From the NCBI GenBank assembly GCA_017467585.1, contig JAFUSR010000004.1, positions 77,918 to 141,917 on the forward strand: a stretch of 64,000 nucleotides of DNA, read 5' to 3'. This stretch comes from Clostridia bacterium (GTDB lineage Bacteria; Bacillota; Clostridia; Christensenellales; UBA1242). Both the position numbers and the translations under genes were made by a program. The notes beneath the pieces are model-generated. The model worked only from the letters and a program-made list of their open reading frames with translations. It was not told the DNA's origin and did not search any database. Positions 6,001 to 58,916 of this stretch are shown in pieces. Position 1 is the first letter of the stretch. Every line of letters starts with the position of its first letter.

Positions 6001-9000
6001 ATCTCACAACCTATGCCGCAATCAACGCCCTAAATAACAACGCAAACGTTCTTGTTGTTAATGGTTGGGACTTCGCTGGTTGGGCAACAACCGCTCACAA
6101 CTCTTCAAGAATGGGCACTGTTGTTTACACCGACGGAAAACAAGTTACCGACCTCACCAAAACAGCAAACGCAGTTGTTAACCTCTATGCAACCTACACA
6201 GCAAAATCTTATGCAATTAGCTATGCGCTCGCTGGCGGAACAGCCGGAACAACAGCTCCAACTTCTTACACAGTTAACGAGAGCTCAGCTCAAAACTTGA
6301 CTCTTAGCGAGCCAACCAGAACGGGTTACACCTTCACTGGCTGGACTTCTAGCAAGAACTCAAGCGGAATTGCAAACATTGCAAAGGGAGCAGGCAAGAT
6401 TGTTATTGCTGCGCTCACTTATGGCGACGTTACACTCACCGCAACTTGGGCTGCAAACTATTATGTTGTTAACATTGACCTTAACAGTGGCAACAGCATG
6501 ACATTTGCATATTCTGGCGGAAGCTACGCATTCGACGGCAGCGCCACAAGCAAGATTTACACCCGCTATGCAAGCAACAAGTTCTTCTATGCTGCAACAG
6601 CTCCAACATATGTTGGCGACGGCAAAACAGTTAACGAAATCACAAGCATCAGCGCTGCAAGAACTGGCTACACAGTTGTTGGAATGGCTCTTGGCTCAAC
6701 CAACGTAACATATTCTAGCGCAACACTTGCCAGCGCATTTGCAGCAACATCTTCTGCAACACTCAAACCAACCTGGGCTGCAAACTTCTATCACCTTGCA
6801 ATTGACCTTGCAAGCGGAAACAAACTTGTGTTTGCATTTGAAGGCGGCTCATATGAGCTCACCACTAACATTGCAGCCGCAAACAGCAAACTCTATGCTC
6901 TTTACGACAGCAACACACTTTATTATTCAGACACAGCGCTCAGCTATAACCTTGGCGTCAGCCCTAAGGCAATCAGCGGCATCAGCGGAACAAGAACAGG
7001 TTACACCCTCAGTGGTGCAAACGTTGGTTCAATTGCTGCCACTCTTGCAACAGGCAAGCTCGCAAGCGCATATAAAACCGCAGCTGCTGGTTCTGTTGCC
7101 GCAACATGGCAAATCAACAGCTACACACTCACCGTTAACAACCAATATATGAACCTTTCTGGCGCATATGTTAACGGAACAACCGGTGGTTATGTTGGAA
7201 GCAACGCAACCGCCCACAACAAAACACAATACACCGCTCAGGTTAACTACAACACAAGCCTTGAGTCTTATTTGACAGCACACGCTGCCACAGGCTTCTC
7301 TTTGGCTCAAATTGTAACAGCATCTGGAACAACTTACACAACAAGCAGCAAGATGCCAGCAAACGCTCTCACACTCTACGCTAAGTTCAGCAGAAATGTT
7401 TATACAGTTTCTGCAACTGGCTACACACAGAGCCTTGCAAACGCCGTTAACGGTGTTGCCACCTACGACGTTGCAACAACTGCAAGCATTGGTGGAACAT
7501 TTGCCCGCAACACAAGTGTTACTGCATATTATGGTCAGTCAATCGCAAACCTTTATAACGTAACTCCTGCCACCGGCTTTGACTATGCCGAGGTTGTTGG
7601 AAAGAGTGGTGTTACAAATGGCACAATCACTGGCAACGCAACACTCGAAATTCATTTCACAAGAAAGGTTGTCGAGGTTGACCTCAGCTATAACACAAAA
7701 TACATCAACGGAACAGGCGTAACGCTTGAAAACGACGGCGTTAAGGTTGTAACCGCAAACAAGAAATATCTCATCGCATTTGGCGCGAGAGCGCTCTTGA
7801 CCGTGGTAACTCAAAAGGGTTACGACGTTGAAGACGTCAAGTTCAACAACACAAGATATCAAGAAATGAGCAACTGGGTTCAAAGCGAATATAACCAGAC
7901 TTACGACAACTATATCTACACTTATGAAATTGTGTTCGACAGCGTTTATACAACTGTTCTTGCCATCGACATTTCAGGCAAGGCAAACAGCAACATGCCA
8001 TATCAAGTGTTCGCCGAATATCAAAACGTTGCGCAAAACGGCTTCGACGAAACAAGCGTGGGTTCGTTTACTGGTGCATCTGATCAAATAATCACAATTT
8101 CTAGCATCATTTCTGCAAGAAACCTTGCGCGCGAAGGCTTTACTTACGCCGGATTTAAAGAAAACAAAACAGCTTCTAGCTATTCTTCTGGCGAATCAAT
8201 AACAATTTCAAACCAAGGCGATTCAAAAGTATACATTTACTTCACACGCGACACTTATAACGTAACATTTACCAACTATGGCGTTGCAAACGACGGCTTA
8301 ACAAGTTACGAACTTAAAACTGTTGGCAGTGGCGTAATCTATAACAGCTCAACCGGCGCCTACAGCGTTGTGTTTGGCGCAAACGTTACATTTGCTGCTG
8401 TTATCAAAGCAGGTTACAACCTTGCCAAGATCACAGTGGACAGCACTGGCACAGCCCGTGATGTAACAAGCCCATTCACATTCAACGTAACTGTTCCAAC
8501 CGTTTCAAACAAGACCTACAAAATTGGCATCTACGTTTATGCAAACCCATACACAATCACACTCACTCAAGACGGAACTGGCGTTAAACCAAGCAACATG
8601 ACTGCTTCAATCACCAAGGGTGCCGAGACTCACAATGTTAACTTTAACGTTGTTGTTTCGAGCTTAGCTAGTGTTCCAACCGTTTCACCTGCTGGATGGG
8701 TGTTTGCCGGATATTATTCAGACAAACTTGGCGCAGGAACAAAAGTGTTCAACGCCGATGGCTCTGTTGTTGCAAACGCTTCGGGCTTCACCGCAAGCAG
8801 CAAGTGGGCAAAGGCCGGTGCAGCCACACTCTACGCTCACTACACACCAAAGACCTATTCGGTTGAATATTATGCATACAACGGCGGAAATGCCCTCAAG
8901 ACCGACACATTCACCTACGACGCTGGTGGAAACCTTTCTGCTGCAAGCACAATGAGTGCACTCACCATTGCAGGCTTCAACTTTAAGGGTTGGGCAACCG

Positions 9001-24000: not shown

Positions 24001-26588
24001 CAACCGCAAACAACTATCAAGGCGAAACATTTAACTATGCTGCAACAACAGCAGAACTTATCAACAACTCTGCAATTAATTCAGTTGTTAGCACATCTGT
24101 TTCTAGTGGTGCTTCAATTACTAAGGTTGATGCAAAAACCTTGAAGATTGTTTACACAACTTCAACAGCTAATGTAACCAGCGGTTCTGCAACGGTTAAA
24201 AACGACCCAATTTATTCAACAACAACGCTTGAACACTTAATCAGTGTAGATACTCAGGGTGCTGCAGAAGTTCACTTATACTTGCCAATCAAGAACGCAA
24301 GCGGAAAGATTCTCTATGTTCTTGACTTTTCAAACCAAGAGACTGGCGTTGACTATAACAGAACAGACTTTGCAACAAACACAAGCTCTTCAAATGGCAG
24401 CCTGGCTCTTTATAGCAGACAACAGAGCCACAAGACAACTCTTCGCTCAATCACAATTTTGGGCAAATCAATCACCAATTCAACCTATAGTTGCACAATT
24501 AATTCTGTTGTGTCTAAGATAGGTAATAAGAACGGTGGTAGTGGACTTACAAACTTCAGCTTTATCACTTATTGGGATAAAGACTATGCAGTTTCTGTCA
24601 ACTCATATTATTACTTCTATAATTTGGCATCTGTTAAACTTGGTGGCTCAGACATTGTTGGAGCAAGCAACAAGGGCATTTCAACCAACAAGCACAGATG
24701 GGGCAGTGGAACATCTGCTGTTGCATACACAACCAACAACGAATCTTCTAATGTCACAACCAACATCTATAACGCGGGAACTTACACCAACGGCAGTCTG
24801 ATGAACAAGACTCTTGCTGTAACAACCTCGTTCTCTACCTACGGAACAATTAAATATTCTGGTTATAACAGAACAACACAAACAACCGGTGTTGTTGCAA
24901 CAATCGAATATATTTCTAATGGTTCTAGCGGATTCTACAACAACGGAACATTCAACCTTTCTGCAATTTCAGATGACCTTTCTAGTCAAATGATCTTAAC
25001 TGGCTACACCAACTCTGCAACCGATGGACTTGGAGTTTGGAACTTGAACACAAACTACACAGTTTGGAGAATTCTCGCAGCAGTAATTGCAATCCAAGGC
25101 GACTATGACGTTGCAAAAGCAGATGCACAAATTCAACTCCGCGCTAACTACGAATTGTCTTCAGTATGGCTTTCATACTCAAATGGCAATGGTAAAGGCT
25201 TTGGTGAGATGGATACTTACGCATCTTCAAGCTCAAGCATAACAGTTAAGAGAAGCGCAACCGATTTGCAAGACGCAATCGACTTCTATCTTGCAAACCT
25301 TAACAGCTCAGATTGGGGCAAGGTTGCAACCCTCACAATCTATAACAGTGGTGTTGCTCTCTCTGGTGGCTTCACATTGTCTAAAGCTCTAGTTATGACA
25401 AGCGGAATGCAACTCACAATCACAACCAGACACGGCAAGGTTGTTGGCACAGGCACAGGCAAAACAACAACAATCGATGGCGGAACTCCAGCAAGAGAAA
25501 CAATCAAAATTGCTGGCTCAATCAGCATGACAGGTGCTGCTGGATTCTTCGATGTTAAGAGTGGCGCAACTCTTGCATTCACCAACATCGACTTTGATGT
25601 TGCATCATTTGCCGCAGGAACAGCAACCAAGATGTTCAACATTGGCGGAACTCTGAACATCAACAAGTCAACCAGCGGAACCGACGCAAACATCTCTAAC
25701 GACGGTGCAACTGGAACATCAACAACAGCCTACAGAACAAAAGTTACTGGTGCAACACCAGGCGGCTCAGGAATTGTTCTGTTCTATGCAAGTGGCGATG
25801 CCGCAAAGATTAACGCAGTTAACATCAACATTTCAAATCTCAAACCTGGCAATACATCTAGCACAGATGTTCTCAGAAGCATATTCGTTATCGATGGTGG
25901 TGCTCACACATTCAAGAATATCAGAATCGCTGGCGCAAGCTATGTTGGCCCAGCAATTGCAGTCAACAACACCTCAACCGGAACCGACAAAACTGTTACA
26001 TTCGAAAATGTTGTGTTTGCACCTAGTGGATACACGGAGCTCTCGTATATCGAGAGCACCGGCACCCAGTATATTAATACCGGCATAACTTCAATACCTG
26101 CTCCGTTTTCTATAGAAATCACATATCTGAAATCTAACACTAATACAAACGATCAATGTTTGTTTGGAAGCAGGCAACTTGGTAAATTTGTGAACATATA
26201 TGGTAATTATTATGAAACAGCTTTTGGTAATACTGCCTCAAATACAGCTAATGGAGATAATAACACACATACTATTTTATGTGACAGTACATCTGGGTTC
26301 TATAAGGATGGGACAAAACTAGCTACATCTTACAGCACATTAGCTAGTCGCAGTTCAACACAACCAGGGCTAATTTGCGCATTCACCGAAGAGGAATCGT
26401 TTTCGCCAAAATGGTTTTTCGTAGGAAAGATATACTATGTGAGAATAATTGTAGATGGGAAAATGTTCCACGACTTTATTCCTATGAAGCGCAATAGCGA
26501 TGGCGCAATTGGCCTCTACGACGCCGTAACCGGCACATTCTACACCAACGCTGGCACGGGCACATTCATCGCCGGCCCCGAAGTGTAA
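3..26588 (+). CDS. Giant surface-type repeat protein, 5-prime partial (more than 8,861 codons in the window). Mostly Listeria-Bacteroides (InlB B-repeat / Flg_new-type) repeats with nested accessory domains.
   Basis: One stop-free frame runs from window position 3 to TAA at 26586-26588. The ORF-track Met at 66 is internal: the same frame reads ...[22 protein letters not shown]... upstream with no stop. Many tens of roughly 65-75 aa units carry the signature Y-x-[IV]-x-[FY]-x-x-N-G-G ... P-[ST]-R-x-G-Y-T-F-x-G-W ... L-Y-A-x-W. The C-terminus (...[18 protein letters not shown]) has no LPXTG or hydrophobic anchor. Confidence 0.9.
   Translation, partial: [8861 protein letters not shown]
696..1130 (+). 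repeat. Intragenic module M, copy 1 ([50 protein letters not shown]...)
   Basis: One of four copies of a roughly 145-aa module. The first roughly 85 aa are conserved and the last roughly 55-60 aa are unrelated between copies. Confidence 0.8.
3315..4010 (+). other. LamG/concanavalin-like domain nested inside a Listeria-Bacteroides repeat, copy 1
   Basis: The host repeat opens [47 protein letters not shown] and closes [15 protein letters not shown] about 190 aa later. The insert (...[16 protein letters not shown]...[25 protein letters not shown]...[10 protein letters not shown]...[10 protein letters not shown]) has the pattern of LamG-type lectin-fold domains. The fold is assigned by pattern recognition only. 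Confidence 0.6.
4287..4725 (+). repeat. Intragenic module M, copy 2
   Basis: [52 protein letters not shown]..., followed by a copy-specific segment. Confidence 0.8.
9681..10375 (+). other. LamG/concanavalin-like nested domain, copy 2
   Basis: Paralogous to 3315-4010. It shares a 56-nt perfect match (3900-3955 = 10269-10324). The host repeat opens [45 protein letters not shown] and closes [14 protein letters not shown]. Confidence 0.6.
14227..14625 (+). other. Roughly 130-aa beta-sandwich-like insert nested in a repeat ([36 protein letters not shown]...[19 protein letters not shown]...HTLTAAW)
   Basis: It interrupts a host repeat at the same place as the LamG-like inserts, between GYTFxGW and the closing xLxAxW strand. 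I do not recognise the family and the fold is a guess. Confidence 0.4.
14916..15350 (+). repeat. Intragenic module M, copy 3
   Basis: [52 protein letters not shown]..., followed by a copy-specific segment. Confidence 0.8.
15950..16620 (+). other. LamG/concanavalin-like nested domain, copy 3 (divergent)
   Basis: The host repeat is [47 protein letters not shown] ... [15 protein letters not shown]. The insert is ...[26 protein letters not shown]...[25 protein letters not shown]...[10 protein letters not shown]...[10 protein letters not shown]. Confidence 0.55.
16908..17360 (+). repeat. Intragenic module M, copy 4
   Basis: [52 protein letters not shown]..., followed by a copy-specific segment. 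Confidence 0.8.
18655..19100 (+). other. CBM / galactose-binding-like domain candidate
   Basis: The segment [88 protein letters not shown]...[25 protein letters not shown] resembles CBM4/9-type sugar-binding modules. This is a pattern-level call only. Confidence 0.4.
19185..19760 (+). other. 'YIxSTGTQ ... [19 protein letters not shown]' domain, internal copy A, nested in a repeat
   Basis: ...[32 protein letters not shown]...[34 protein letters not shown]...HTLYARW. It is flanked by the two halves of a host Listeria-Bacteroides repeat. Confidence 0.7.
22740..26020 (+). other. Non-repetitive roughly 1,100-aa region of the giant protein, including a probable right-handed beta-helix-like stretch near 25400-26000
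   Basis: No GYTFxGW/LYAxW periodicity is visible after about 22740. The segment ...[23 protein letters not shown]...[31 protein letters not shown]...GGTLNINKS...[10 protein letters not shown]...[10 protein letters not shown]...VTFENVVF has the short alternating-strand look of parallel beta-helices. Confidence 0.45.
26025..26585 (+). other. 'YIxSTGTQ ... [10 protein letters not shown]' domain, terminal copy B
   Basis: [21 protein letters not shown]...[37 protein letters not shown]. It shares both terminal motifs with copy A, but the core is diverged. Confidence 0.7.
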
Positions 26589-26590
26589 AA

Positions 26591-26630
26591 CTTTAACAAA
26601 AAAGCATAACCAACAACGGCTATGCTTTTT
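26591..26630 (+). repeat. Direct repeat DR1 (terminator-hairpin copy) on the left flank of the GIY-YIG cassette
   Basis: ctttaacaaaaaagcataaccaacaacggctatgcttttt, compared with DR2 ctttaacaaaaaggcataaccaaatcagttatgccttttt at 27251-27290. The first 23 nt match 22/23, the loops differ, and the stems are preserved. Confidence 0.75.
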
Positions 26631-26633
26631 TTT
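26598..26633 (+). terminator. Rho-independent terminator of the giant gene
   Basis: The sequence is aaaaAGCATAaCCaacaacGGcTATGCTtttttttt, 10 nt after the stop codon. It has a stem with one internal mismatch and a T8 run. Confidence 0.7.
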
Positions 26634-26635
26634 GC

Positions 26636-26680
26636 GTCATGCTAACCGAAGTGCCAGCGGCACGGAGTGGAGAGCATCTC
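26636..26680 (+). repeat. GC-rich GTCAT...ATCTC unit, copy A
   Basis: GTCATGCTAACCGAAGTGCCAGCGGCACGGAGTGGAGAGCATCTC. The closing stem is ATGCT/AGCAT and there is an inner hairpin GTGCC-agc-GGCAC. Confidence 0.7.
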
Positions 26681-26725
26681 ATCAATCCCTTTACTTTTCT
26701 TTTGTTTATGTGCTAAACTTTTTGT

Positions 26726-27010
26726 ATGAAAAATTATTATGTGTATATCCTTACGAATAAAAATAATAGTGTTCTATATGTGGGCATAACAAACAACATA
26801 GAACGCAGAACAATGGCACATGTGTTTTTTGAAGAGAATTCTTTCTGCGCGAAATATAATATAAATAAACTTGTTTATGTTGAACAATATTTGTCTTCGT
26901 ATGATGCTATATCTCGTGAAAAACAACTTAAACATTGGGGAAGAAAAGCCAAAGAAAAGTTAATAAATTCAATTAATCCAGAGTGGAGAGATTTGTTGAA
27001 AAATGACTAA
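26726..27010 (+). CDS. GIY-YIG nuclease family protein (small stand-alone URI-domain type, COG2827-like), 94 aa
   Basis: The protein reads MKNYYVYILTNKNNSVLYVGITNNIERRTMAH...REKQLKHW. The GIY (YVY), YIG (YVG), Arg and Glu motif positions are all present. There is no Shine-Dalgarno sequence, and an extended -10 (TGcTAAACT, 26711-26719) lies 6 nt upstream of the ATG. Confidence 0.85.
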   Translation: MKNYYVYILTNKNNSVLYVGITNNIERRTMAHVFFEENSFCAKYNINKLVYVEQYLSSYDAISREKQLKHWGRKAKEKLINSINPEWRDLLKND

Positions 27011-27031
27011 TGTGTTAGAGGTTTCAGCCCC

Positions 27032-27079
27032 GTCATTCTAAGCGAAGCGACCGAACGGGAGCGTAGTCGAGAGGATCTC
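27032..27079 (+). repeat. GC-rich GTCAT...ATCTC unit, copy B
   Basis: GTCATTCTAAGCGAAGCGACCGAACGGGAGCGTAGTCGAGAGGATCTC. The closing stem is ATTCT/AGGAT, with one G-T wobble. Confidence 0.7.
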
Positions 27080-27094
27080 GTGTGTAAAGCGGCT

Positions 27095-27141
27095 GAGATT
27101 GCCACGACTACACACGCACAGCGTGTTCCGCTCGCAATGAC
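27095..27141 (-). repeat. GC-rich GTCAT...ATCTC unit, copy C (inverted orientation)
   Basis: The reverse complement reads GTCATTGCGAGCGGAACACGCTGTGCGTGTGTAGTCGTGGCAATCTC. The closing stem is ATTGC/GCAAT and there is an inner hairpin ACACGC-tgt-GCGTGT. Confidence 0.7.
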
Positions 27142-27162
27142 AATTTTTATCCTCTGCCCGCC

Positions 27163-27209
27163 GTCATTGTAAACGTCAGGAACAAAGCGACCAAAGTCGA
27201 AACAATCTC
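27163..27209 (+). repeat. GC-rich GTCAT...ATCTC unit, copy D
   Basis: GTCATTGTAAACGTCAGGAACAAAGCGACCAAAGTCGAAACAATCTC. The closing stem is ATTGT/ACAAT. The unit is itself enclosed by a 12-nt inverted repeat with one mismatch: atcctctgcccg (27149-27160) and cggacagaggat (27209-27220). Confidence 0.7.
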
Positions 27210-27220
27210 GGACAGAGGAT

Positions 27221-27240
27221 CACGCAGTCGAGAGGGTTTC
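27221..27240 (+). repeat. Partial (3-prime half) GC-rich unit, copy E
   Basis: cacgcAGTCGAGAGGgtttc matches the 3-prime half of copy B (gcgtAGTCGAGAGGatctc). Confidence 0.45.
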
Positions 27241-27250
27241 ATTCACCAAC

Positions 27251-27290
27251 CTTTAACAAAAAGGCATAACCAAATCAGTTATGCCTTTTT
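27251..27290 (+). repeat. Direct repeat DR2 (terminator-hairpin copy) on the right flank of the GIY-YIG cassette
   Basis: The sequence is ctttaacaaaaaGGCATAACcaaatcaGTTATGCCttttt. It has a perfect 8-bp stem plus a T run and probably also works as a terminator ahead of leuS. Confidence 0.75.
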
Positions 27291-27302
27291 CTTCTCAAAC
27301 AA

Positions 27303-49171: not shown

Positions 49172-50389
49172 ATGGCAAAAGCAAAATTTGACAACACAAA
49201 ACCTCACGTTAACGTCGGAACAATCGGCCACGTTGACCACGGTAAAACAACTCTTTCTGCTGCAATTTCTTTCATCATGGCTCATGATTATGATCCAAAC
49301 AGCAAAGAAGTAAAAGACTACGATCAAATCGACTCTGCTCCAGAAGAGAAGGCAAGAGGTATTACAATTAACACAGCTCACATTGAATACCAAACAGCAA
49401 ACAGACACTATGCACACGTTGACTGCCCAGGACACGCTGACTATGTTAAAAACATGATCACCGGTGCTGCACAAATGGACGGTGCAATCCTTGTTGTTGC
49501 TGCAACTGATGGCGTTATGCCACAAACAAGAGAACACATTCTTCTTGCTCGTCAGGTTGGCGTTCCAAAAATTGTTGTATTTATGAACAAAATGGACCAA
49601 CTTGGTGGCGACGAAGAACTTGCTGACCTTGTAGATATGGAAGTAAGAGAACTTCTTACACAATACGGATTCGACGGAGACAACACTCCAATCATCCGTG
49701 GTTCTGCTTTCCAAGCTCTTGAAGATGCAAAAGCAGGCAAATGGGATAGTCCATGGGTTAACGGCGTAAGAGAACTTATGGAAGCTGTTGACAAATACAT
49801 CCCAACACCAGCCCGTGACAATGACAAACCATTCTTGATGCCAATCGAAGACGTTTTCACAATCACAGGTCGTGGAACAGTAGTTACTGGTCGTGTAGAA
49901 CGTGGTGTTCTTAAACTTAACGACACAGTAGAAATCGTTGGTTTGAAACAAGAAAAAATGTCAACAGTAGTAACTGGCATCGAAATGTTCCGTAAACTTC
50001 TTGACGAAGCTGTTGCTGGTTATAACATTGGTGTTCTGCTTCGTGGTATCCAAAGAACAGACGTAGAACGCGGACAAGTTCTTTGCAAACCAGGCACAAT
50101 TCATCCACACACAGACTTCACAGCAGAAGTTTATGTTCTTACAAAAGACGAAGGTGGTCGTCACACACCATTCTTCAACAACTATCGTCCACAATTCTAC
50201 TTCAGAACAACAGACGTTACAGGTTCAATTGAACTTCCACAAGGCACCGAAATGGTTATGCCTGGCGATAACACAGGAATGACAGTTCGTCTTATCACTC
50301 CAGTAGCTATCGAAGAGGGAATGCGTTTCGCTATTCGTGAAGGTGGCAGAACAGTTGGTTCTGGTGTTGTATCTAAAATTCTTAAATAA
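49172..50389 (+). CDS. tuf: Elongation factor Tu
   Basis: 405 aa. ...[17 protein letters not shown]...[26 protein letters not shown]... Confidence 0.98.
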
Positions 50390-50410
50390 TTTTAGAAATA
50401 ATTCACTATA

Positions 50411-50443
50411 ACACAAAAAGGGAGCAATTTGCTTCCTTTTTTG
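50411..50443 (+). terminator. tuf terminator, which is copy 1 of a perfect 33-bp direct repeat
   Basis: The sequence is acacaaaaaGGGAGCAattTGCTTCCttttttg, identical to 52030-52062. Confidence 0.85.
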
Positions 50444-50491
50444 TTTCACAAAACATATAGATTTATATTTAAAATTGCAATTTGCAAAAAG

Positions 50492-50521
50492 TTGACAACA
50501 CGCTTTAAATTTTATTATCAT
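50492..50521 (+). promoter_or_regulatory. Candidate promoter of the repeat-lipoprotein gene
   Basis: TTGACA, 18 nt, TATCAT. Confidence 0.4.
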
Positions 50522-50552
50522 AATATTGAGAGAAAATGTTTGGAGAAAATTT

Positions 50553-51950
50553 GTGAAGAAATTGATTTACACCTTGCTCACAATGCTTTTCTTAATTCCT
50601 ATTGGAATGGCTTTTTCAGGCTGCACAAATGCATATTGTGTTAACTTTATGGTTAATGGAAGGATATACAAGTCAGTGCAAGTGCAACCAGGTGAGTCAA
50701 TAGGAAGAATCGATGACCCAGAAAAAGATGGTTATGTTTTTGAGGGATGGTATTTTTCTGAAAGTCAAGATGCACAAAAGTTTAATTTTGAGGCTTCTCA
50801 AATAAACTCAAATGTTACACTTTATGCAAAATGGAGTAAAAACAACTATACAATTGTATACAAAAATATGGAGGACGCAACAAATCACCCAAACAATCCA
50901 ACATCTTATTCTGTTGAAACTCCAACCTTTTCACTCAACAATCCAACAAAAGACAACTTTGTTTTTGAGGGATGGCATCTTAAGCAAGATTTTTCTGATG
51001 AAAAAGTAACAACAATTTATGCGGGAACAACGGGCGACCTTTTGTTATATGCAAATTGGCTTCCTGTTTCATATAACATAACATATGTGTTAAATGGTGG
51101 CTACAACGATGAGAAAAACCCATCTAATTATAATCCCGAAAGCATAATTCGCCTTGCTCCGCCTGTAAGAGATTTTTATAATTTTGAGGGGTGGTATTTA
51201 GATAGTGAATTTTCTAATGGCCCAGTGAACACAATAACTCTAGGGTCGAGTGGAGATAAGACATTTTATGCCAAGTGGTCAATAATTGAATACACAATTA
51301 CTTATAACCTAAATAATGGAACAAATGACTTGAGAAACCCATCATCCTACACGAACAAAAGTTTAGATATAACCATTTATGATGCAGAAAAAGCCAACTA
51401 TGAGTTTTTGGGTTGGTATAATGAAGAAGGCGAAAAAATAACAGAAATTCCAGAGGGTTCATCCGGCAACTTAGTGTTAGAGGCTGTTTTTGAACCAATT
51501 TTATATTCAATTGTTTATCATAACACAGAAGGTGCAACCATTCCATCAACAAACCCAATTCATTACACCGTGGAATCTCCAACATTAACACTTGCAAATC
51601 CAACTAGAACCGCATATATTTTTCAAGGCTGGTATACAAATGAACAAATGACTGGTCAAAAAATTACACAAATTGTTGCAGGCTCAAGTGGCAAAATAGA
51701 TTTGTTTGCCAAGTGGGATGCCTACAACTATAGCATAAACTATGTCTTAAATGGAGGAATAAACAACGAATATAACCCTGCAACATTCACTGTGGTAGAT
51801 GTGGTTCCGCTTTTAGCCCCAACAAAAGAAGGTTATTCGTTTGATGGGTGGTACTTGCGTTCAGATTTTGTTGGTGATCCAATTGATAAAATTGCGTATG
51901 GCACACACGAGGCAATCACAATTTACGCAAAGTGGAGCATAAACAGCTAA
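50553..51950 (+). CDS. Lipoprotein with six Listeria-Bacteroides (InlB B-repeat-type) repeats
   Basis: I prefer the GTG at 50553 (VKKLIYTLLTMLFLIPIGMAFSGC, giving a signal peptide plus lipobox), with GGAGA 7 nt upstream. Six units carry ...GY/NxFEGWY...LYAKW... signatures. Confidence 0.85.
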   Translation: MKKLIYTLLTMLFLIPIGMAFSGCTNAYCVNFMVNGRIYKSVQVQPGESIGRIDDPEKDGYVFEGWYFSESQDAQKFNFEASQINSNVTLYAKWSKNNYTIVYKNMEDATNHPNNPTSYSVETPTFSLNNPTKDNFVFEGWHLKQDFSDEKVTTIYAGTTGDLLLYANWLPVSYNITYVLNGGYNDEKNPSNYNPESIIRLAPPVRDFYNFEGWYLDSEFSNGPVNTITLGSSGDKTFYAKWSIIEYTITYNLNNGTNDLRNPSSYTNKSLDITIYDAEKANYEFLGWYNEEGEKITEIPEGSSGNLVLEAVFEPILYSIVYHNTEGATIPSTNPIHYTVESPTLTLANPTRTAYIFQGWYTNEQMTGQKITQIVAGSSGKIDLFAKWDAYNYSINYVLNGGINNEYNPATFTVVDVVPLLAPTKEGYSFDGWYLRSDFVGDPIDKIAYGTHEAITIYAKWSINS

Positions 51951-52029
51951 ACAATTAGTTTTAAACCAAATGGTGGAAGCGAAGTAGACATCATAACACA
52001 AAATTGTGGAACAGCAGTTCATAATTTTC

Positions 52030-52062
52030 ACACAAAAAGGGAGCAATTTGCTTCCTTTTTTG
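52030..52062 (+). terminator. Copy 2 of the 33-bp tuf-terminator repeat, terminating the lipoprotein cassette
   Basis: A perfect match to 50411-50443. Confidence 0.85.
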
Positions 52063-52077
52063 ATTCCATTTTAAATA

Positions 52078-52106
52078 TTGACGACTTGCTGCTTGAATGA
52101 TATAAT
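52078..52106 (+). promoter_or_regulatory. Candidate sigma-A promoter
   Basis: TTGACG, 17 nt, TATAAT. The RBS is GGGGGA and the ATG is at 52139. Confidence 0.5.
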
Positions 52107-52138
52107 ATTTATAATAAAAAATATGGGGGAATAAAGCA

Positions 52139-52942
52139 ATGTCAAAACGATTTATGTTAGACGAACTGAACAGTCTTTATGGTGTTGATGTTTCAGACTG
52201 CACCACCCCAGATGAAAAGCTTGAAAAACTTTATGCAACATTTCGTCAGCAACAGAGAGAATATACTGAGAAATATGGCGAAATGGGAGAGGAAGAAGCC
52301 AGACAATTGCTTTATAAGGCTGTTAGCACAAAGGCAAAAAGAATAGAAGATCCTAAAATTAGAGAAGAGTTAAAAATTCACGTAATTAATGCCGTAAAAG
52401 TTTTAACTTGTGCTCAAATGGGCATTGATCCATCGAAAGTTGGTCTCTCAATTATTGACAAAAAAGATGATTTTGAAAGTGAAAACTATGCTCTTGCTGC
52501 CCCAGCACATATTGTAGATTTTAAGCGTAAGTTTGAAGAAGACAATCCCGACAATATGCTTGCTTCTATTGTTGTTTACAAGGATTTATTAAAAATGTTT
52601 CCCGTTCCGGAATTAATGCCTCTATTGTTTCATGAATGTAGACATATTCAACAAATAGAGTTAGAAAAACAAGGCGAAACTTTTGGCAGGGGAACATCAA
52701 AATTTTACGCATTCAGATGGCTAACCGACGGAAGAGAGGCAGATGCAGATAGTTATGCTTACGCACAAACTATGAATATTTATTCTGAGGCTGCACAGGC
52801 AGGTTATGATACAAATTATTTAAAAACCCACAAACGAATTGCCAAATTTGTTCTTGGAGCATACAACAAAGCGCATGATATGTTTGCGGTCTACAGACAA
52901 CCAAGACAAGCTTTGTCGTCAGATACAGAATTATCAAAATAA
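52139..52942 (+). CDS. Hypothetical protein with an HExxH motif (possible zinc metallopeptidase-like fold), 267 aa
   Basis: ...ELMPLLFHECRHIQQIE... is the only recognisable motif. The rest is helical and acidic, and there is no signal peptide. Confidence 0.6.
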   Translation: MSKRFMLDELNSLYGVDVSDCTTPDEKLEKLYATFRQQQREYTEKYGEMGEEEARQLLYKAVSTKAKRIEDPKIREELKIHVINAVKVLTCAQMGIDPSKVGLSIIDKKDDFESENYALAAPAHIVDFKRKFEEDNPDNMLASIVVYKDLLKMFPVPELMPLLFHECRHIQQIELEKQGETFGRGTSKFYAFRWLTDGREADADSYAYAQTMNIYSEAAQAGYDTNYLKTHKRIAKFVLGAYNKAHDMFAVYRQPRQALSSDTELSK

Positions 52943-53082
52943 TCAGTTCACAAATCCCTTATTACGTTGCTCAGAGATGTGAATTCCAATACACTTAAAT
53001 TATAATTTGCAACAAAGAACGCAAAACAGATGTTTAACATATAAAACAACATAAAAAAACGCAAAAAGTGTCAAAACGCAAT

Positions 53083-53112
53083 AAAAAACTTACCAAATTT
53101 GGTAAGTTTTTT
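53083..53112. terminator. Bidirectional terminator
   Basis: aaaaaaCTTACCAAATTTGGTAAGtttttt is a perfect 18-nt palindrome flanked by A6 and T6. Confidence 0.8.
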
Positions 53113-53115
53113 ATT

Positions 53116-53721
53116 TTAAATCTTTAAAATTTTATCAAAAGTGTTTTCTTCAAGAACTTTTTTGTTTTCTTCGAAGTCTGCTTTTATTTCATCGGCTCTT
53201 CTAAAATATTCTTGCTGGGTGTCGACGGTTTCTTTAACCGATAGGGCAGTTTCTTTAATTCTAACCCATTCACATTTGCAATAAACACAAGAGATTGTTT
53301 GATAATAATCACAGCCTCTTCTTAAAACTTCAAACAGTTTTGTTTTTTGTTCTTTGGAAAGGGTTTCTTTGTTTGCAATGTAGTTAACAACCAAGTCTTC
53401 AATTTTTGTCAGAGCATTTCTCAAGTCTTTTTCTGCTGCAGCTTTATAGTTAGTGTCATAAAAAATTTGTGACTTGTTTTCAACAAATGTTTGAAGAAGT
53501 GTGTTGTCGTCAAGTTTTTGTGTAATGATTCCATAAACAGCTTTAATACAAGAGCTTGAACAATCAATAATGTGTTGAAATGTGTTAAGTCTTCTTTGAG
53601 TGATGAGTTCAGTATATCTTTTCTTTTTGTTGTTTTGTGCTGTGAAAATAATGTTCACCATAACGCCACAAAGTGATAATATTCCAACCACAAAAGTAGC
53701 TAAGTTAAAATCTAATTTCAT
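53116..53721 (-). CDS. Hypothetical N-terminally membrane-anchored protein, 201 aa
   Basis: I prefer the ATG at 53721 (MKLDFNLATFVVGILSLCGVMVNIIF...), with GGAGA 8 nt upstream. It has one TM helix followed by a helical soluble part with a Cys cluster (CVYCKCEW). Confidence 0.6.
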   Translation of the reverse strand: MKLDFNLATFVVGILSLCGVMVNIIFTAQNNKKKRYTELITQRRLNTFQHIIDCSSSCIKAVYGIITQKLDDNTLLQTFVENKSQIFYDTNYKAAAEKDLRNALTKIEDLVVNYIANKETLSKEQKTKLFEVLRRGCDYYQTISCVYCKCEWVRIKETALSVKETVDTQQEYFRRADEIKADFEENKKVLEENTFDKILKI

Positions 53722-53818
53722 ATTTATGTCTCCAAAAACATTATAACACAAATAAATTTAATGGCAATAATTGTTGAAAAATTTTACGGGCGATAGTTAA
53801 AGTTTTAAATTCAAGAGT

Positions 53819-53848
53819 TTGCCAATCACTATTAGTTAGTGTTATACT
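53819..53848 (+). promoter_or_regulatory. Candidate promoter with an extended -10, only 8 nt upstream of the ATG
   Basis: TTGCCA, 18 nt (with TGt), TATACT. The ATG is at 53857 and no Shine-Dalgarno sequence lies between. Confidence 0.4.
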
Positions 53849-53856
53849 AACCATAT

Positions 53857-55182
53857 ATGGCAGACAAAGAAAACAAAAGTGAACAATTACACTTAGAGGG
53901 CACCAACCCCCAGTTTTCTGACGAACAAAAAATAGAAATGGTTGAAGAGCAGACCGAACTTGCCATGCAGATAGATGAAAATCAAACCTCAATAAACGAT
54001 TTTGACGACGGAATTTTAGAAGGTCACGTCGTTGCCGGGCTCATTAAAGAGGCAGAAGAAACAGAGCAAAAATCAAAAAAGAAAAAGACGGCAATAACAA
54101 GCATAATCTTTTTTGCAATCAACATTTTGCTTATGATTTTCATTGTGCGCAACTTGTTAAATTCAGCAAGTGTTGCAAATTTCAACAACGTTGCGCAGGC
54201 GCAAACAACCAGGTTGTGGTGGATTGCCGGCGGCTTTGGTTTTTTGGTTTTGTTTTTTGCGTGCGAAACATTGCTGTTTTATTTTTTAATTAAAAAAATA
54301 ACTGGCAAGCGCAGACTCTGGCTGTCATATAGAATTGCTGCTGTTGGCAAATATTACGACTTTATCACGCCAACACAGCTTGGTGGCCAACCATCGCAAA
54401 TACTTAGGCTCACAAAAAGTGGTCTTTCTGGTGGACAGGCAACAAGCATACCAATTATCAAACTAATTGTTTATAGTTTTGTTTATACAGTTATTTCAAT
54501 CTTTCTATATTTTTATGGCCTTCCTATGGTCACAACAGCAGGAAGCCTTCAAGGATTTTTGATGGCACTAGTTAAAATTCTTGGTGGTATTGGTCTTGTT
54601 GTAACCGTAATCATGACATTTTTATATTTCATTATCGGAAACGGAAAGCTAATAGGTCGTTCTTTCATCACATGGCTAGTTAGGGTAGGGTTCAAACTTC
54701 ATATCGTCAAAAACTACCGCAAGGCGTTAGACAGGTTGATGACCCAAGTTCAAGAATATCAAAGTTCAATTAAATACCTCAACAAAAACAAGGGAACACT
54801 TGTTATAACGGTGTTGTTGTGTTTGGTTGAATGCGTGGCCTTTGCTTTAATTCCGTTTGCTATGGTCATGGCGTTTGGTTCAACAACGTTTTCTGGTGTT
54901 TCAGACGCATTATTTTGCATGCTTGTCACCATGAGCTCATATTATTTGTGTTTGATGGTGTCAACCATAATTCCGCTCCCTGGTGGAACAGGAACAATGG
55001 AAGTATGCTTCATTTTTCTGTTTTCAATTGGCACATTTTCGGTTGGAGACAACATCGGTTGGGCGCTCATTTTCTTTAGGCTAATCACATATTATGCGGT
55101 CATCGCCCATGGTTTTTTGCACATTGTGTTTGAAAACATAATTCGAATTGCTAAGAGCAAAAAACAAGGAGTGAACAAATAA
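53857..55182 (+). CDS. Flippase-like / lysylphosphatidylglycerol-synthase TM-region family (UPF0104-type) membrane protein with an acidic N-terminal extension
   Basis: 441 aa and polytopic. ...YRIAAVGKYYDFITPTQLGGQPSQILRLTKSG... resembles the conserved loop of the LPG_synthase_TM/UPF0104 family. This is a pattern-level call. Confidence 0.55.
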   Translation: MADKENKSEQLHLEGTNPQFSDEQKIEMVEEQTELAMQIDENQTSINDFDDGILEGHVVAGLIKEAEETEQKSKKKKTAITSIIFFAINILLMIFIVRNLLNSASVANFNNVAQAQTTRLWWIAGGFGFLVLFFACETLLFYFLIKKITGKRRLWLSYRIAAVGKYYDFITPTQLGGQPSQILRLTKSGLSGGQATSIPIIKLIVYSFVYTVISIFLYFYGLPMVTTAGSLQGFLMALVKILGGIGLVVTVIMTFLYFIIGNGKLIGRSFITWLVRVGFKLHIVKNYRKALDRLMTQVQEYQSSIKYLNKNKGTLVITVLLCLVECVAFALIPFAMVMAFGSTTFSGVSDALFCMLVTMSSYYLCLMVSTIIPLPGGTGTMEVCFIFLFSIGTFSVGDNIGWALIFFRLITYYAVIAHGFLHIVFENIIRIAKSKKQGVNK

Positions 55183-55190
55183 AACATACA

Positions 55191-55226
55191 AAAAAAGTCA
55201 AATAAAAAAAGATTTGGCTTTTTTGT
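55191..55226 (+). terminator. Rho-independent terminator
   Basis: The sequence is AGTCAAAT-aaaaaaag-ATTTGGCT (one G-U pair) followed by tttttg. Confidence 0.55.
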
Positions 55227-55305: not shown

Positions 55306-57105
55306 ATGAAAAGATTAAAACAATTAATTGTGTCAATTGCTTTGGTGTTTGCATTGGCAATTCCAGCCTTTGCGCTTGTTGGATGCAACATGCTTAAGTC
55401 AAACAAAAACAACAATTCAGATCAACAAGACGAACAACAACAATCACAGGCCCTGACAATCTCTCAGGTTCTAAATGATTTTGGAACTCACTTGCTTGCC
55501 ACAGACGAATTGGTTCCAGAAAAATTAAATGTGCTGCTCAGAGATAAGGGTGAGCATGAGGCAATTACAAACGAATTAAAAAGCTTCGATATTCCTTATG
55601 ATGATTATGAAGGTGAACTAAACGCAGACCAACAGGCTGAACGTGTTGCTGCAATAAACAGAAAAGCCGCATTAGAAGAAAGACAACAACAGCTCGAAGA
55701 ACTCTATGACGTTGATAATGTCGCAGATTTTGAAGATAAAATGAATGATCTTTTGGACGAGAATGTTTATGCAATGGCATATTTCAATGTTGGAATTCCA
55801 TCAGAATCAGGCACCGATTATCCAGGTCAAGATCAATATGGTGAGTTACTAAATCAATATCATCAATGGCTTGGTCAAAACTTTACGGCAGTTGGTCAAT
55901 TAGCTGTTGTTAATGCAAAAGAAAACACACCATACATGGATAGCAATCAAGAACTTGTATTCCAATATTCAATTTCAGACAACATGTTAACAATGCTAAT
56001 TAATTCTCGTGATGATGTATTTGCTGTTAACTATGTTTATGACAATTCTAAACTTGTTGCAATAACAAGTGAAAGTTATTATGCCGAAAAGTCTGTTGAA
56101 GAATTTTCTGAGCCTCAAGAATCAGGCCCAGATGTTGAATATACTTTAAACAACTCAACCACAAATTTACAAACAGCTTATTATGATGTTGAAAACAACA
56201 TGTGGTATCAAGTTTCTTTGCATGAAGAATATAGCATTGATTCTCGCAACACCAACAAATATGTTCCAGCTTTGGAAGATTTTGTTGCCGCATACAACGC
56301 TGGCAAAATGACATCAGCTGTTATGAACAAATTCTTTAATTCTGACATCGATTACACATTTATGGCATTTGACGTGCTTTCAGGAAAAAATGAGTTGTCG
56401 ACTAACCACTCATTACATATCGAAAGTTCAGACCCAATAAAGGCTCTCAAAGCAGTTAAGTCTAAGATTAACACTCTTCCAACAGAGACTGTTGAATTTG
56501 ATATTAACTTGTTTGATATTGAAGAACTTGAGTATCCTGAAGAAATTCCAGAAGAGATGGAAGAATTAGAAAAGTATTTCGTCGAGAGAAGAGAACTTTT
56601 AAACATTTCTAAATATGATGAAAACTTAGAGCTTGTTTACAAATATGACAGACTAGATTTTCCACCAAAGACAACACTTGCAAAAGGTCAAGCAATTTTA
56701 GTGTTGACTAAAATGGTTAAAGCTTTGCAAGAAAAAGATTACAACCAAGAAGCAGAAAGATTTAATGCTTATTTTGGAGGCTATTATTATATAGATGCAG
56801 AAACTGAGGGGCAAACATTTGAGCGCATTGTCAGTGGCTTAAACAATGCCAAGAGAAACCTTCAAGAGACAACTGATTGGGATGGCGAAACTCTTGACCA
56901 AGTTTATGTTGCACCAGGTGAAGAAGAGCCAGGAAATTATTCAACTTGGAAAATACGAGAACACGTTGTGACAGATTCTTCTGTTGTCTATAGAATTGAC
57001 ACAGATTTTGGTTATAATAGCAATGGAGTTAACATCTTTTTTGAACTTTCAAATAGTGGGGAATTGCTTAATGTTGCAATACTCATGCAATATATCGGAG
57101 AATAA
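55306..57105 (+). CDS. Lipoprotein of unknown function, paralog 1 (599 aa)
   Basis: The signal peptide plus lipobox is MKRLKQLIVSIALVFALAIPAFALVGC. The mature part is acidic and Gln-rich and is collinear with the next gene. Confidence 0.8.
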   Translation: MKRLKQLIVSIALVFALAIPAFALVGCNMLKSNKNNNSDQQDEQQQSQALTISQVLNDFGTHLLATDELVPEKLNVLLRDKGEHEAITNELKSFDIPYDDYEGELNADQQAERVAAINRKAALEERQQQLEELYDVDNVADFEDKMNDLLDENVYAMAYFNVGIPSESGTDYPGQDQYGELLNQYHQWLGQNFTAVGQLAVVNAKENTPYMDSNQELVFQYSISDNMLTMLINSRDDVFAVNYVYDNSKLVAITSESYYAEKSVEEFSEPQESGPDVEYTLNNSTTNLQTAYYDVENNMWYQVSLHEEYSIDSRNTNKYVPALEDFVAAYNAGKMTSAVMNKFFNSDIDYTFMAFDVLSGKNELSTNHSLHIESSDPIKALKAVKSKINTLPTETVEFDINLFDIEELEYPEEIPEEMEELEKYFVERRELLNISKYDENLELVYKYDRLDFPPKTTLAKGQAILVLTKMVKALQEKDYNQEAERFNAYFGGYYYIDAETEGQTFERIVSGLNNAKRNLQETTDWDGETLDQVYVAPGEEEPGNYSTWKIREHVVTDSSVVYRIDTDFGYNSNGVNIFFELSNSGELLNVAILMQYIGE

Positions 57106-57149
57106 CAACTAACCCATATAACACACTTAAATCATCAAAGGAGAAAATA

Positions 57150-58916
57150 ATGAAAAAATTAAAACAGTTTATCATTTCAATTGCCTTGGTGTTTGCATTG
57201 GCAATTCCAGCCTTTGCGCTTGTTGGATGCAACATGCTTAAGTCAAACAAAAACAATTCTTCAAGTGATCAACAACAAGAACAATCTGGTGGAGAAGAGC
57301 AATCTCAACCACTCACACTTTCAAGGGCGGTTTCAGATTGTGAAACAGCGCTAGTAAACGCAGATTCTGAGTTAAAAGAAGATTATAACAAAAAATCAAA
57401 AGACTTTTCAGAATATAATGCTATTCAAGAAAAGTTAAAGAATTTTACAATCCCATATCTTCCAGACAATCCAACTGACGAGCAGGTTAAAGCTTATGAT
57501 GCAGCAATGGCTCAAAAAGAAATGTTAGAAAGAAGACTTGCACAAATTCAAACCAGTTATGGTGCTGCAGATGCTGAAGCGTTTAAAGATGTTTTAAGCG
57601 ATTGGCGCACAACTGCTTCTGAAATTGAAAATCATTATGGCGTTAATGAAGAATCACAAGAGGTACCATTTTATAAGCAAGATTATCAACAATTTGTTAT
57701 GCAAAGTGTGTCAATTTTGGCTTATTTAAATGCAGCTCAAGCAAAAGAAAACACACCATATTCTTTCGAAGATGGCCCCGGTTTAACTGTTGCTCAATAC
57801 TCAGTTTCAGACAACAAGGTTGATTTGCTTGTAGAGCATAATGGCATGGCTTCTTTGGCGCAATTTGTTTACAATGGTTCGCACCTTCAAACAGTTTCAC
57901 TTGCTTTGTACGGCGAAAATATCCGCACCAAAGAATATGATGAAAATCCAAATTTGAATTTAGGCACAACAATTGAAGAGCCGGGCGTTTCAAGCCTTGC
58001 TTCATACATCATCACAAATACAGAGAAATATCTGGAAGCTTGCTTATTGGATTTTTCAACCAACAATTTTTATGAAATTAATTTATCTGAGAGATATAGT
58101 TCAGAAGATGACTACACCCCAGTGTTAACAGATTTTGTCAATGCTTACAACACAGGAAAAATCACTTATGACCTTATTGACAGACTTTATTCAGGTTCAA
58201 AACATATAGATAGTTATTTTGTGATTTATGACATTGCAACAAACAATGCAAAATATGCAGGCACGAATGGAGATTCAAACGCAGACATTGTTACACTTTT
58301 AAGACCACTCAAGAGCAAAATTTCTGAACTTCCAGCAGAAGCTACTGAACTGGATATCAACTGGTTTGATGTTGAAGAAATAAGTTTTGAAGTTCTTGAA
58401 GAGGCACAAAACCAACTTGAAAACATGTTTGGCTCACTAGAGCTTTTGTCTATGTCTAACTACAATGAGCAAATTCAATTTGCTTTCACTTATAAGTATA
58501 TTGGTGTTGAACAAAAATTACAAAAAGCTTTGATGGTATCAGCTTTGGATCAATTAATTGATATGTTGAGCGATGAAGAATATGTGTGTTCAGATACTTT
58601 TGTTGACATGGTGCACACGATTGATGGTCGCTCATCGTGTTCGACAAGTGATATTACTGAAAGTTTCATTAGCCAATTAAGCCAAGCTAAACAAAACTTA
58701 GAAGATTGTGATGATTGGGACGGAAGAACTTTAGTCTATTTCGACCCATCGCAAACATATGAAGATGTAATGGAACCATGGGAAATACACTTATATTGCA
58801 ATGTAAGTAATGGTGATGTCATTTATATAATTGACGATGTAAATTTCTATTTCTCTCTCGATAGCGAAAATCAAGTTATAGATGCGGCTAGAATTTATTT
58901 ACATGAGCCTAAATAA
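57150..58916 (+). CDS. Lipoprotein of unknown function, paralog 2 (588 aa)
   Basis: The N-terminus is MKKLKQFIISIALVFALAIPAFALVGC. Motif islands shared with paralog 1 include KENTPY, QYS[IV]SDN, FV.AYN.GK[MI]T, LKSKI..LP.E..E.DIN.FD.EE and Q.K.NL.....DWDG.TL. Confidence 0.8.
   Translation: MKKLKQFIISIALVFALAIPAFALVGCNMLKSNKNNSSSDQQQEQSGGEEQSQPLTLSRAVSDCETALVNADSELKEDYNKKSKDFSEYNAIQEKLKNFTIPYLPDNPTDEQVKAYDAAMAQKEMLERRLAQIQTSYGAADAEAFKDVLSDWRTTASEIENHYGVNEESQEVPFYKQDYQQFVMQSVSILAYLNAAQAKENTPYSFEDGPGLTVAQYSVSDNKVDLLVEHNGMASLAQFVYNGSHLQTVSLALYGENIRTKEYDENPNLNLGTTIEEPGVSSLASYIITNTEKYLEACLLDFSTNNFYEINLSERYSSEDDYTPVLTDFVNAYNTGKITYDLIDRLYSGSKHIDSYFVIYDIATNNAKYAGTNGDSNADIVTLLRPLKSKISELPAEATELDINWFDVEEISFEVLEEAQNQLENMFGSLELLSMSNYNEQIQFAFTYKYIGVEQKLQKALMVSALDQLIDMLSDEEYVCSDTFVDMVHTIDGRSSCSTSDITESFISQLSQAKQNLEDCDDWDGRTLVYFDPSQTYEDVMEPWEIHLYCNVSNGDVIYIIDDVNFYFSLDSENQVIDAARIYLHEPK

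Follow-up and report, generated by a model that had tools for sequence, protein, structure and literature searches.

In Neisseria, minimal mobile elements (Saunders and Snyder 2002; Snyder et al. 2007), as defined in PMC3082526, are units that differ between strains at a slot with conserved flanks and carry no mobility gene. For the T6SS (type VI secretion) arrays of Vibrio cholerae, homology-facilitated illegitimate recombination was proposed as the process by which modules are displaced next to conserved anchors (PMC5361080). A third model, microhomology-mediated break-induced replication/fork stalling and template switching (MMBIR/FoSTeS), was made for human copy-number variants and for amplification in Escherichia coli (PMC2621351). 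Here, we describe a locus of a Clostridia bacterium that can be compared with all three. It lies in a stretch of 64,000 nucleotides (C2:77918-141917; hereafter, the window), in which a 33-bp transcription terminator is present directly downstream of tuf, the gene for elongation factor Tu (EF-Tu), and again behind a gene for a repeat lipoprotein, with 1,586 bases between the two copies. A sequence-only reading of the window had suggested that the bracketed DNA is a cassette inserted at or through the terminator hairpin. Our comparison with relatives leads to a different view: the two terminator copies are probably the by-product of a recent local rearrangement in a variable slot between tuf and a gene similar to those for LPG synthases, and no hairpin-targeting mobile cassette would have been involved.

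The 33-mer ACACAAAAAGGGAGCAATTTGCTTCCTTTTTTG is found twice without a single mismatch, and its first copy starts 22 nt after the tuf stop codon (50387-50389). Each of them folds into a hairpin with 12 base pairs (-13.6 kcal/mol), 3' of which a T run is located. With up to 3 mismatches allowed, the window contains no third copy, and 0 matches were obtained in 100 shuffled versions of it. In the whole genome (973,583 bases in four contigs; 37% G+C), the 33-mer is likewise present in 2 copies only, even if up to 4 mismatches are allowed in the hairpin core. This confirmed the perfect duplication of the tuf terminator and showed that it is specific to one pair. A generic multi-copy element at terminators, such as a repetitive extragenic palindrome (REP), a miniature inverted-repeat transposable element (MITE) or similar, was rejected on the basis of these exactly two copies. 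When public metagenome and genome collections were scanned with a degenerate hairpin core, 86 matches were obtained, nearly all in unrelated organisms, and the hairpin adjoined tuf only in one lineage, L020, which is described below.

For comparison, we used four other species of the genus and many members of the family, all with genomes of approximately 1 Mb. The order of the flanks, tuf on the left and the gene for an LPG_synthase_TM membrane protein on the right, is the same in the window's genome (G000), in G001, G002 and G004, and in L020. The content of the slot differs: G002 has an empty slot, G004 a single gene for a lipoprotein and L020 two genes; in G001, three other genes are present, and the window also has three, of which one is truncated. 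G003 is rearranged. In G002, tuf is followed by one terminator, the LPG-synthase-like gene and rpoB. Thus, a relative with an empty site, for which the sequence-only reading had suggested to look, does exist, and its view of the bracketed gene as accessory agrees with the variable content of the slot. In G004, tuf is followed by a terminator with a different stem, a spacer with a promoter, a gene for a 790-aa Flg_new lipoprotein, a terminator that we name T3 (stem CTTAC/GTAAG) and the LPG-synthase-like gene. The spacer and promoter in front of this lipoprotein gene are homologous to the stretch that follows terminator copy 1 in the window, and the same holds for L020.

The sister lineage L020-L023 is represented by four metagenome contigs from four samples, which are 98-100% identical to one another. 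In L020, the 3' end of tuf is followed by a terminator (T; AAAAAGGAGGCGATTTGCTTCCTTTTTTTTG), a promoter (aaatattgacg-17-gatataat) and a 268-aa gene; then come a second terminator (T2), the spacer with its promoter, a full-length gene for an 879-aa Flg_new lipoprotein, T3, the LPG-synthase-like gene and rpoB. By blastn, L020 1-836 matched window 49604-50442 (tuf 3' end and copy 1; 90%), L020 809-1654 matched 52034-52875 (copy 2 and a 267-aa gene; 71%), L020 1973-2721 matched 50645-51393 (lipoprotein gene; 67%), and L020 4595-5951 matched 53839-55195 (LPG-synthase-like gene; 76%). Because this map is permuted, the single L020 terminator T corresponds to both copies in the window, and the two genes stand in opposite order. 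In the window, tuf is followed by T, the promoter and 5' part of the lipoprotein gene, T again, the 267-aa gene with its promoter, and T3. On its downstream side, copy 2 has the same neighbour as T in L020, namely the promoter of the 267/268-aa gene. Furthermore, T3, which is located behind the full-length lipoprotein gene in L020 and G004, follows the 267-aa gene in the window. The T sequences of the window and of L020 differ by 3 substitutions and indels. Since the window copies are nevertheless identical to each other, the rearrangement should be younger than the split between the two lineages. It thus appears to be recent, with a vestigial piece of the lipoprotein gene still readable.

This vestigial piece was recognized by comparison with the full-length gene. 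The window lipoprotein contains six Flg_new/List_Bact repeats (PF09479, E = 7.6e-69, 6 stretches; also TIGR02543), and its gene has a near-consensus promoter (11/12 matches in a promoter scan). It aligned without gaps to residues 1-475 of the L020 protein (879 aa), with approximately 55% identity in tblastn. The TAA of the window gene aligns with the tyrosine that opens the seventh repeat of the L020 protein, pointing to a Tyr-to-stop change. Behind the TAA, the beginning of the seventh repeat follows in the same frame, and the homology breaks off within this repeat, exactly at the start of copy 2. Therefore, the earlier statement that exactly one gene is present between the copies has to be amended. 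Altogether, the lipoprotein is cut after 6 of at least 9 repeats, and approximately 400 C-terminal residues of the L020 ortholog, which comprise more repeats and a non-repeat C-terminal domain, are missing. No counterpart of the latter domain was found anywhere in the window's genome. In relation to the full-length gene, the 5' 1.5 kb were kept and the 3' 1.2 kb were lost. Judging from these alignments, the 1.6 kb between the terminator copies is a relocated, broken 5' part of a resident gene and does not have the character of a discrete unit.

These observations are difficult to reconcile with a cassette that was integrated at the hairpin or through it: on its right side, the bracketed DNA ends in a truncated gene, and it is native to the locus, being present one gene further downstream in L020. 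One could still think of a true mobile cassette moved by a site-specific enzyme that is encoded elsewhere, either integron-like or of the hairpin-recognising IS200/IS110 type, the 33-mer being its attachment site or target duplication. Direct repeats around a self-promoted gene would suit such an element, as would the ability of the single-stranded repeat to form a hairpin. However, in addition to the right end inside a broken gene, the genome has only the two 33-mers and no other copy of the unit, no terminal inverted repeats were seen, and the scan of public collections showed the hairpin adjoining tuf in the L020 lineage only. The IS200/605 Y1 transposase (Y1_Tnp) and the IS110 transposase were not found in the genome, and the gene tables list no recombinase domain among the neighbouring genes, which bears out the earlier remark that no recombinase is encoded nearby. 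Finally, a target duplication of 33 bp would exceed those of known transposases by far. We regard the mobile cassette as largely refuted and give it hardly any weight.

Specific elements of this kind were also rejected one by one. An integron gene cassette does not agree with a plain terminator repeat in 2 copies, a promoter of its own, the lack of a neighbouring integrase and an end inside a gene. Against an insertion sequence or transposon speak the missing Y1_Tnp and IS110 transposases, the single-copy unit, the 33-bp duplication and the fact that no inverted ends were seen. A class C group II intron was dismissed, since Rfam searches of 50300-53900 at E values up to 1 gave nothing except a chance sub-threshold match at T3, and the open reading frame (ORF) encodes the Flg_new lipoprotein. 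The locus does share hairpin-adjacent DNA and direct repeats around a single gene with integron cassettes, IS200/IS605 and IS110 elements and class C group II introns, the last of which insert after terminators. In contrast to all of them, the locus has no integrase, transposase, reverse transcriptase or intron RNA, and its repeat is an ordinary terminator that is found twice.

How the lipoprotein gene came to be joined to copy 2 is suggested by the sequence at the left junction. Across the junction, the frame reads H-T-K (CAC ACA AAA AGG), and at the corresponding place of the intact repeats it reads P-T-K (CCA ACA AAA GA); repeats 2 and 6 contain CCAACAAAAGA, compared with CACACAAAAAGG at the junction. 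Since the repeat codons and the 5' edge of the terminator have ACAAAA(G) in common, the join can be placed at the A-tract of the terminator, and this microhomology makes hairpin recognition unnecessary for explaining the position of the left edge. According to our model, the window joins two arrangements of the variable slot via one illegitimate junction, probably at the ACAAAA(G) microhomology, by which T was fused, at its 5' edge, to the seventh repeat of the lipoprotein gene. On the right, the 33-mer would end at the point at which the two arrangements diverge. Alternatively, this edge may go back to a deletion that joined T and T2 in the tail TCCTTTTTTTG, which both terminators of L020 have in common. 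In either case, the structure would require one illegitimate junction and, at the right end, one event within homology or at its edge. Hairpin-targeted insertion is not supported, also because copy 2 has remained attached, as T is in L020, to the promoter of the 267-aa gene. Of the two mechanisms that were originally considered, template switching at hairpins and hairpin-targeted integration, the former is compatible with the junction.

Two routes to this structure can be envisaged. In the first, a tandem duplication of the segment comprising T, the 267-aa gene and the 5' part of the lipoprotein gene would have come first, after which two redundant parts were lost, namely the first 267-aa gene and the second copy of the lipoprotein gene. 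In the second, the two allelic arrangements would have undergone a single exchange, homologous on one side and illegitimate on the other, that is, a homology-facilitated illegitimate recombination. A dedicated enzyme would be required for neither. The intragenomic duplication and loss fits the data equally well as the homology-facilitated exchange. In both cases, copy 2 would now terminate transcription of the shortened gene and insulate the promoter of the 267-aa gene, and the nonsense codon at the repeat boundary would remove a junk tail of 49 residues.

Homologous recombination in the flank is indicated by tuf itself. The comparison of L020 1-786 with window 49604-50389 and with L015 21-1238 showed that the L020 tuf is a mosaic, in which a central patch (around QALEAAKAGKWDDPAIKPIQELMDAVDTY) is identical to G004 and the C-terminal 100 residues are identical to the window's genome. 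From this mosaic, it follows that homologous recombination with a breakpoint inside tuf has occurred. Moreover, the genome encodes a ComEC homolog, which makes DNA uptake conceivable.

With these data, the locus can be set beside the described systems. As in the minimal mobile elements of Neisseria, different whole-gene units occupy, depending on the lineage, a slot between conserved genes (here tuf and the LPG-synthase-like gene), no mobility gene is present, and homologous recombination in the flanks is presumed; the mosaic tuf of L020 is an example of such recombination. Conserved flanks, varying units and the lack of a mobility gene bring the whole slot within the definition of minimal mobile elements, as far as gene content can tell. 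The window differs in that it merges two arrangements and contains a broken gene and a duplicated terminator, which goes beyond an allelic swap, and the uptake side is represented here by the ComEC homolog alone. Homology-facilitated illegitimate recombination (de Vries and Wackernagel 2002; Prudhomme et al. 2002) resembles our case in having one side homologous near a conserved anchor and the other side illegitimate at a short microhomology. In the V. cholerae T6SS arrays, too, older modules are pushed downstream and leave remnants. In contrast to that process, the join in the window duplicates 33 bp of the anchor edge rather than removing recipient DNA; the related arrangements are known here only from other species (G004 and L020). 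A tandem duplication with reciprocal loss, or MMBIR/FoSTeS, would share with the window the microhomology junctions, the mixture of duplication and deletion, and the change of gene order without a recombinase. Here, the end product alone is seen, with a candidate microhomology at one junction only. In terms of mechanism, the locus is largely ordinary: an illegitimate-recombination scar in a variable slot.

Several points weigh against the proposed rearrangement. No strain of this species that retains the unrearranged order was found; indeed, no second strain of the species was detected at all, the collection scans included (locus L018 is 100% identical to the window over 12.8 kb). For this reason, the polarity and the number of steps are only inferred, from relatives with core genes that are approximately 10% diverged. 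The 144 bases between the 267-aa gene and T3 did not show any trace of T2 or of the lipoprotein gene above shuffled controls. The intragenomic route takes three events, and the one-step route needs a donor and a recipient arrangement that were not observed in exactly such form. In addition, no more than 2-4 nt separate the edges of the 33-mer from the hairpin, and another terminator duplication in this genome (28 nt; see below) coincides exactly with its hairpin. Chance breakpoints are rarely so placed, and a terminator-specific bias, be it microhomology of the tracts, stalling or selection, must be added to the explanation.

Short repeats are classic sites of assembly errors, the genome was assembled from a metagenome, and a k=31 assembly graph breaks at a 33-mer. 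Accordingly, we considered that the structure might be an artefact, in which strain variants were merged at the 33-mer, or that two different terminators were made identical by gene conversion. In the Logan k=31 assembly of SRR12529339, one contig corresponds to window 50414-52059 and another to 52033-53109, and the same contigs are present in 3 samples. As expected, the graph breaks at the 33-mer, but the junction between the lipoprotein remnant and copy 2 is located inside a contig. Since this contig was built from raw reads, the junction is supported independently of the genome assembly. Furthermore, the truncated lipoprotein gene or the 267-aa gene is carried by five contigs of 50 kb to 1 Mb, and those that were read show the same neighbours. 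A merge of strains would not create such a junction. Gene conversion is not needed either, because copy 2 has the neighbour of T in L020 and descent explains the identity, which ends sharply on both sides. Artefact and conversion together are highly improbable in our estimation.

The sequence-only reading had also pointed to another bracketed gene in the window and proposed to scan the genome for further duplicated terminators. A total of 366 terminator loci were predicted, and neighbour pairs within 6 kb were compared with random pairs. An alignment score of at least 20 was reached by 9/838 neighbour pairs, in comparison to 3/5744 random pairs. Tandem tRNA or 5S units with their terminators account for four of the nine similar pairs, and a pair of tandem paralogs for at least one other. 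Four terminator pairs, two perfect and two imperfect, bracket an unrelated gene, so that the suspected recurrence was found: the tuf case and three others.

The second perfect case is a 28-nt palindromic terminator (AAAAAACCTGCCGACTGGCAGGTTTTTT) located at C2 710816-710843 and C2 712568-712595, with a repeat that extends exactly from its first A to its last T. Between these copies, there is an orphan 546-aa gene (locus L110) with its own TTGACA promoter; no homolog of the protein was found among 5.8 billion proteins or in 25 relatives. At the corresponding site, G004 has a conserved 32-aa ORF, one different terminator and ileS, and is thus empty. In the third case, a 94-aa GIY-YIG gene (window 26588-27295) is flanked by two hairpins that are approximately 80% alike. 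Its unit has a repeat of its own of approximately 52 nt (e.g., 27026-27079), which is also present at C2 673598-673649, C2 673069-673110 and C1 70487-70538. This is the gene that had been named as the first instance of the same process. It can be counted among the bracketed genes, but with hairpins of this limited similarity and an encoded nuclease of its own, it does not clearly belong to the same process as the tuf case. The fourth case is a 358-aa GIY-YIG homing-endonuclease-like gene (C3 22946-24367) with repeated GGYYWCY modules, flanked by two copies of a 62-nt stretch that consists of the last 6 nt of a tRNA gene, the trailer and a terminator (same stem, different loop). A further candidate, the 187-aa lipoprotein gene between tsf and frr (C2 481958-482800), was rejected: the terminators have the same 10-nt stem and different loops, and their similarity score is within the range of random pairs.

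Breakpoints at terminator edges are thus commoner than expected by chance in this genome. Possible causes are selection for intact transcription units, A/T tracts that serve as general microhomology, or stalling induced by hairpins. These cases are also what speaks for a recurring, recombinase-independent process at terminators, in which replication stalling with template switching, or a structure-specific nuclease that nicks both strands at the hairpin base, would leave captured DNA flanked by two full terminators, the lipoprotein fragment being such a captured piece. It would account for the edges of the 33-mer at 4 and 2 nt from the hairpin, for the second perfect case with its empty site in G004, for the two GIY-YIG nuclease genes bracketed in the imperfect cases, and for the excess of like neighbours over random pairs. 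On the other hand, the DNA captured in the tuf case comes from the same locus and copy 2 keeps its L020 neighbour, which ordinary duplication or exchange explains without targeting; the left junction lies on a sequence microhomology; almost half of the similar pairs (4/9) are tandem tRNA or 5S units, and paralogs account for at least one more; and selection for intact transcription units would also leave the surviving breakpoints at terminator edges. Moreover, neither the tuf case nor the 546-aa case has a candidate enzyme linked to it. We therefore consider such a process unlikely as the explanation for the tuf locus. Similarly tentative, and in our opinion doubtful, is the broader idea that terminator edges are preferred, recombinase-free breakpoints for gene gain and shuffling in small-genome gut Clostridia. 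It is conceivable that such a preference would act via A/T tracts as universal microhomology, or via hairpins that stall replication or are nicked at their base. If it exists, new or relocated single genes should repeatedly be found bracketed by two copies of the upstream terminator.

Returning to the local rearrangement that we favour, the tuf locus offers a clean and datable example of a variable surface-protein locus that was rebuilt without the machinery of a mobile element. One illegitimate join next to a highly conserved gene would have swapped the gene order, shortened a repeat lipoprotein and supplied it with a ready-made terminator. The case also calls for caution: direct repeats around a single gene are not sufficient to call it a cassette, and it is the neighbours in relatives that decide. 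Should bracketing by terminators be general, which is not established by the present data, it would bear on the question of how compact genomes acquire orphan genes as whole transcription units.

The features of the slot and its flanks are listed in Table 1.

Table 1. Features between tuf and the LPG-synthase-like gene, with coordinates in the window
Feature	Position	Strand	Characteristics
tuf (EF-Tu), conserved left flank	49172-50389	+	405-aa ORF; 89-93% identity to tuf of four species of the genus
Terminator copy 1 (T)	50411-50443	+	At the site of the tuf terminator in relatives; can be aligned with the one tuf terminator present in L020 and in G002
Spacer and lipoprotein promoter	50444-50552	+	TTGACA-18-TATCAT at 50492-50521; GGAG at 50542-50545
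Truncated lipoprotein gene	50553-51950	+	GTG start, TAA stop; signal peptide with lipobox Cys
Vestigial start of seventh repeat	51951-52029	+	TISFKPNGGSEVDIITQNCGTAVHNF; same frame past the TAA, runs into copy 2
Terminator copy 2	52030-52062	+	Still joined to the promoter of the 267-aa gene, like T in L020
Promoter of the 267-aa gene	52078-52106	+	TTGACG-17-TATAAT, extended -10 TG; kept in L020 (aaatattgacg ... tgatataat)
267-aa orphan gene	52139-52942	+	HExxH-like motif
Palindromic terminator T3	53083-53112		AAAAAACTTACCAAATTTGGTAAGTTTTTT; shares its stem with the terminator behind the full-length lipoprotein gene of L020 and of G004
211-aa orphan membrane protein gene	53116-53751	-	Convergent on T3, 3 nt away; absent at this place in L020, G004 and G002
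LPG_synthase_TM membrane protein gene, conserved right flank	53857-55182	+	PF03706, E = 6e-19; orthologs after the slot in G001, G002, G004 and L020

The assignment of tuf agrees with the Pfam GTP_EFTU domains in its entry of the L018 gene table. The 267-aa protein does not belong to any Pfam family, and its gene was not found in 40 relatives. Among 5.8 billion proteins, it has one homolog (64% identity), which is encoded directly 3' of tuf in L020-L023. The interval between tuf and rpoB harbours further lineage-specific genes in the window, namely the one for the 211-aa membrane protein and, at 55306-58916, two tandem genes for lipoproteins of approximately 590 aa. In L020, these two lipoprotein genes are missing, and a 111-aa gene on the opposite strand is present instead.

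A hairpin nearly identical to that of the 33-mer (AAAAAGGAAGCGATTTGCTTCCTTTTTT) ends a phage-type integrase gene in two metagenome-assembled Clostridia (L064 1320-1347 and L105 3522-3549). In L064, this hairpin is followed by a tRNA gene and, after it, by a gene for a Flg_new lipoprotein. We judged the similarity of the two hairpins to be coincidental.

The 32-aa ORF next to the 546-aa gene reads MFVCSPAMADVLNLIETASTNGYNFVAPEIVE in the window's genome (C2 ~710718-710816) and MNICSPAIKDVFDIIEASSQNGYNFTPPEIIG in G004 (L118 ~6147-6245, minus strand). Oriented divergently from rpmE and equipped with a Shine-Dalgarno sequence of its own, it probably encodes a real small protein. Another repeat of approximately 130 nt (C2 348045-348174 and 352653-352782) was rejected as a terminator, since it corresponds to the ribosome-binding site and first 29 codons of a 197-aa gene. 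It brackets 4.6 kb with phage-like genes and a tRNA array, and looks like the result of an integration that duplicated the 5' end of the gene.

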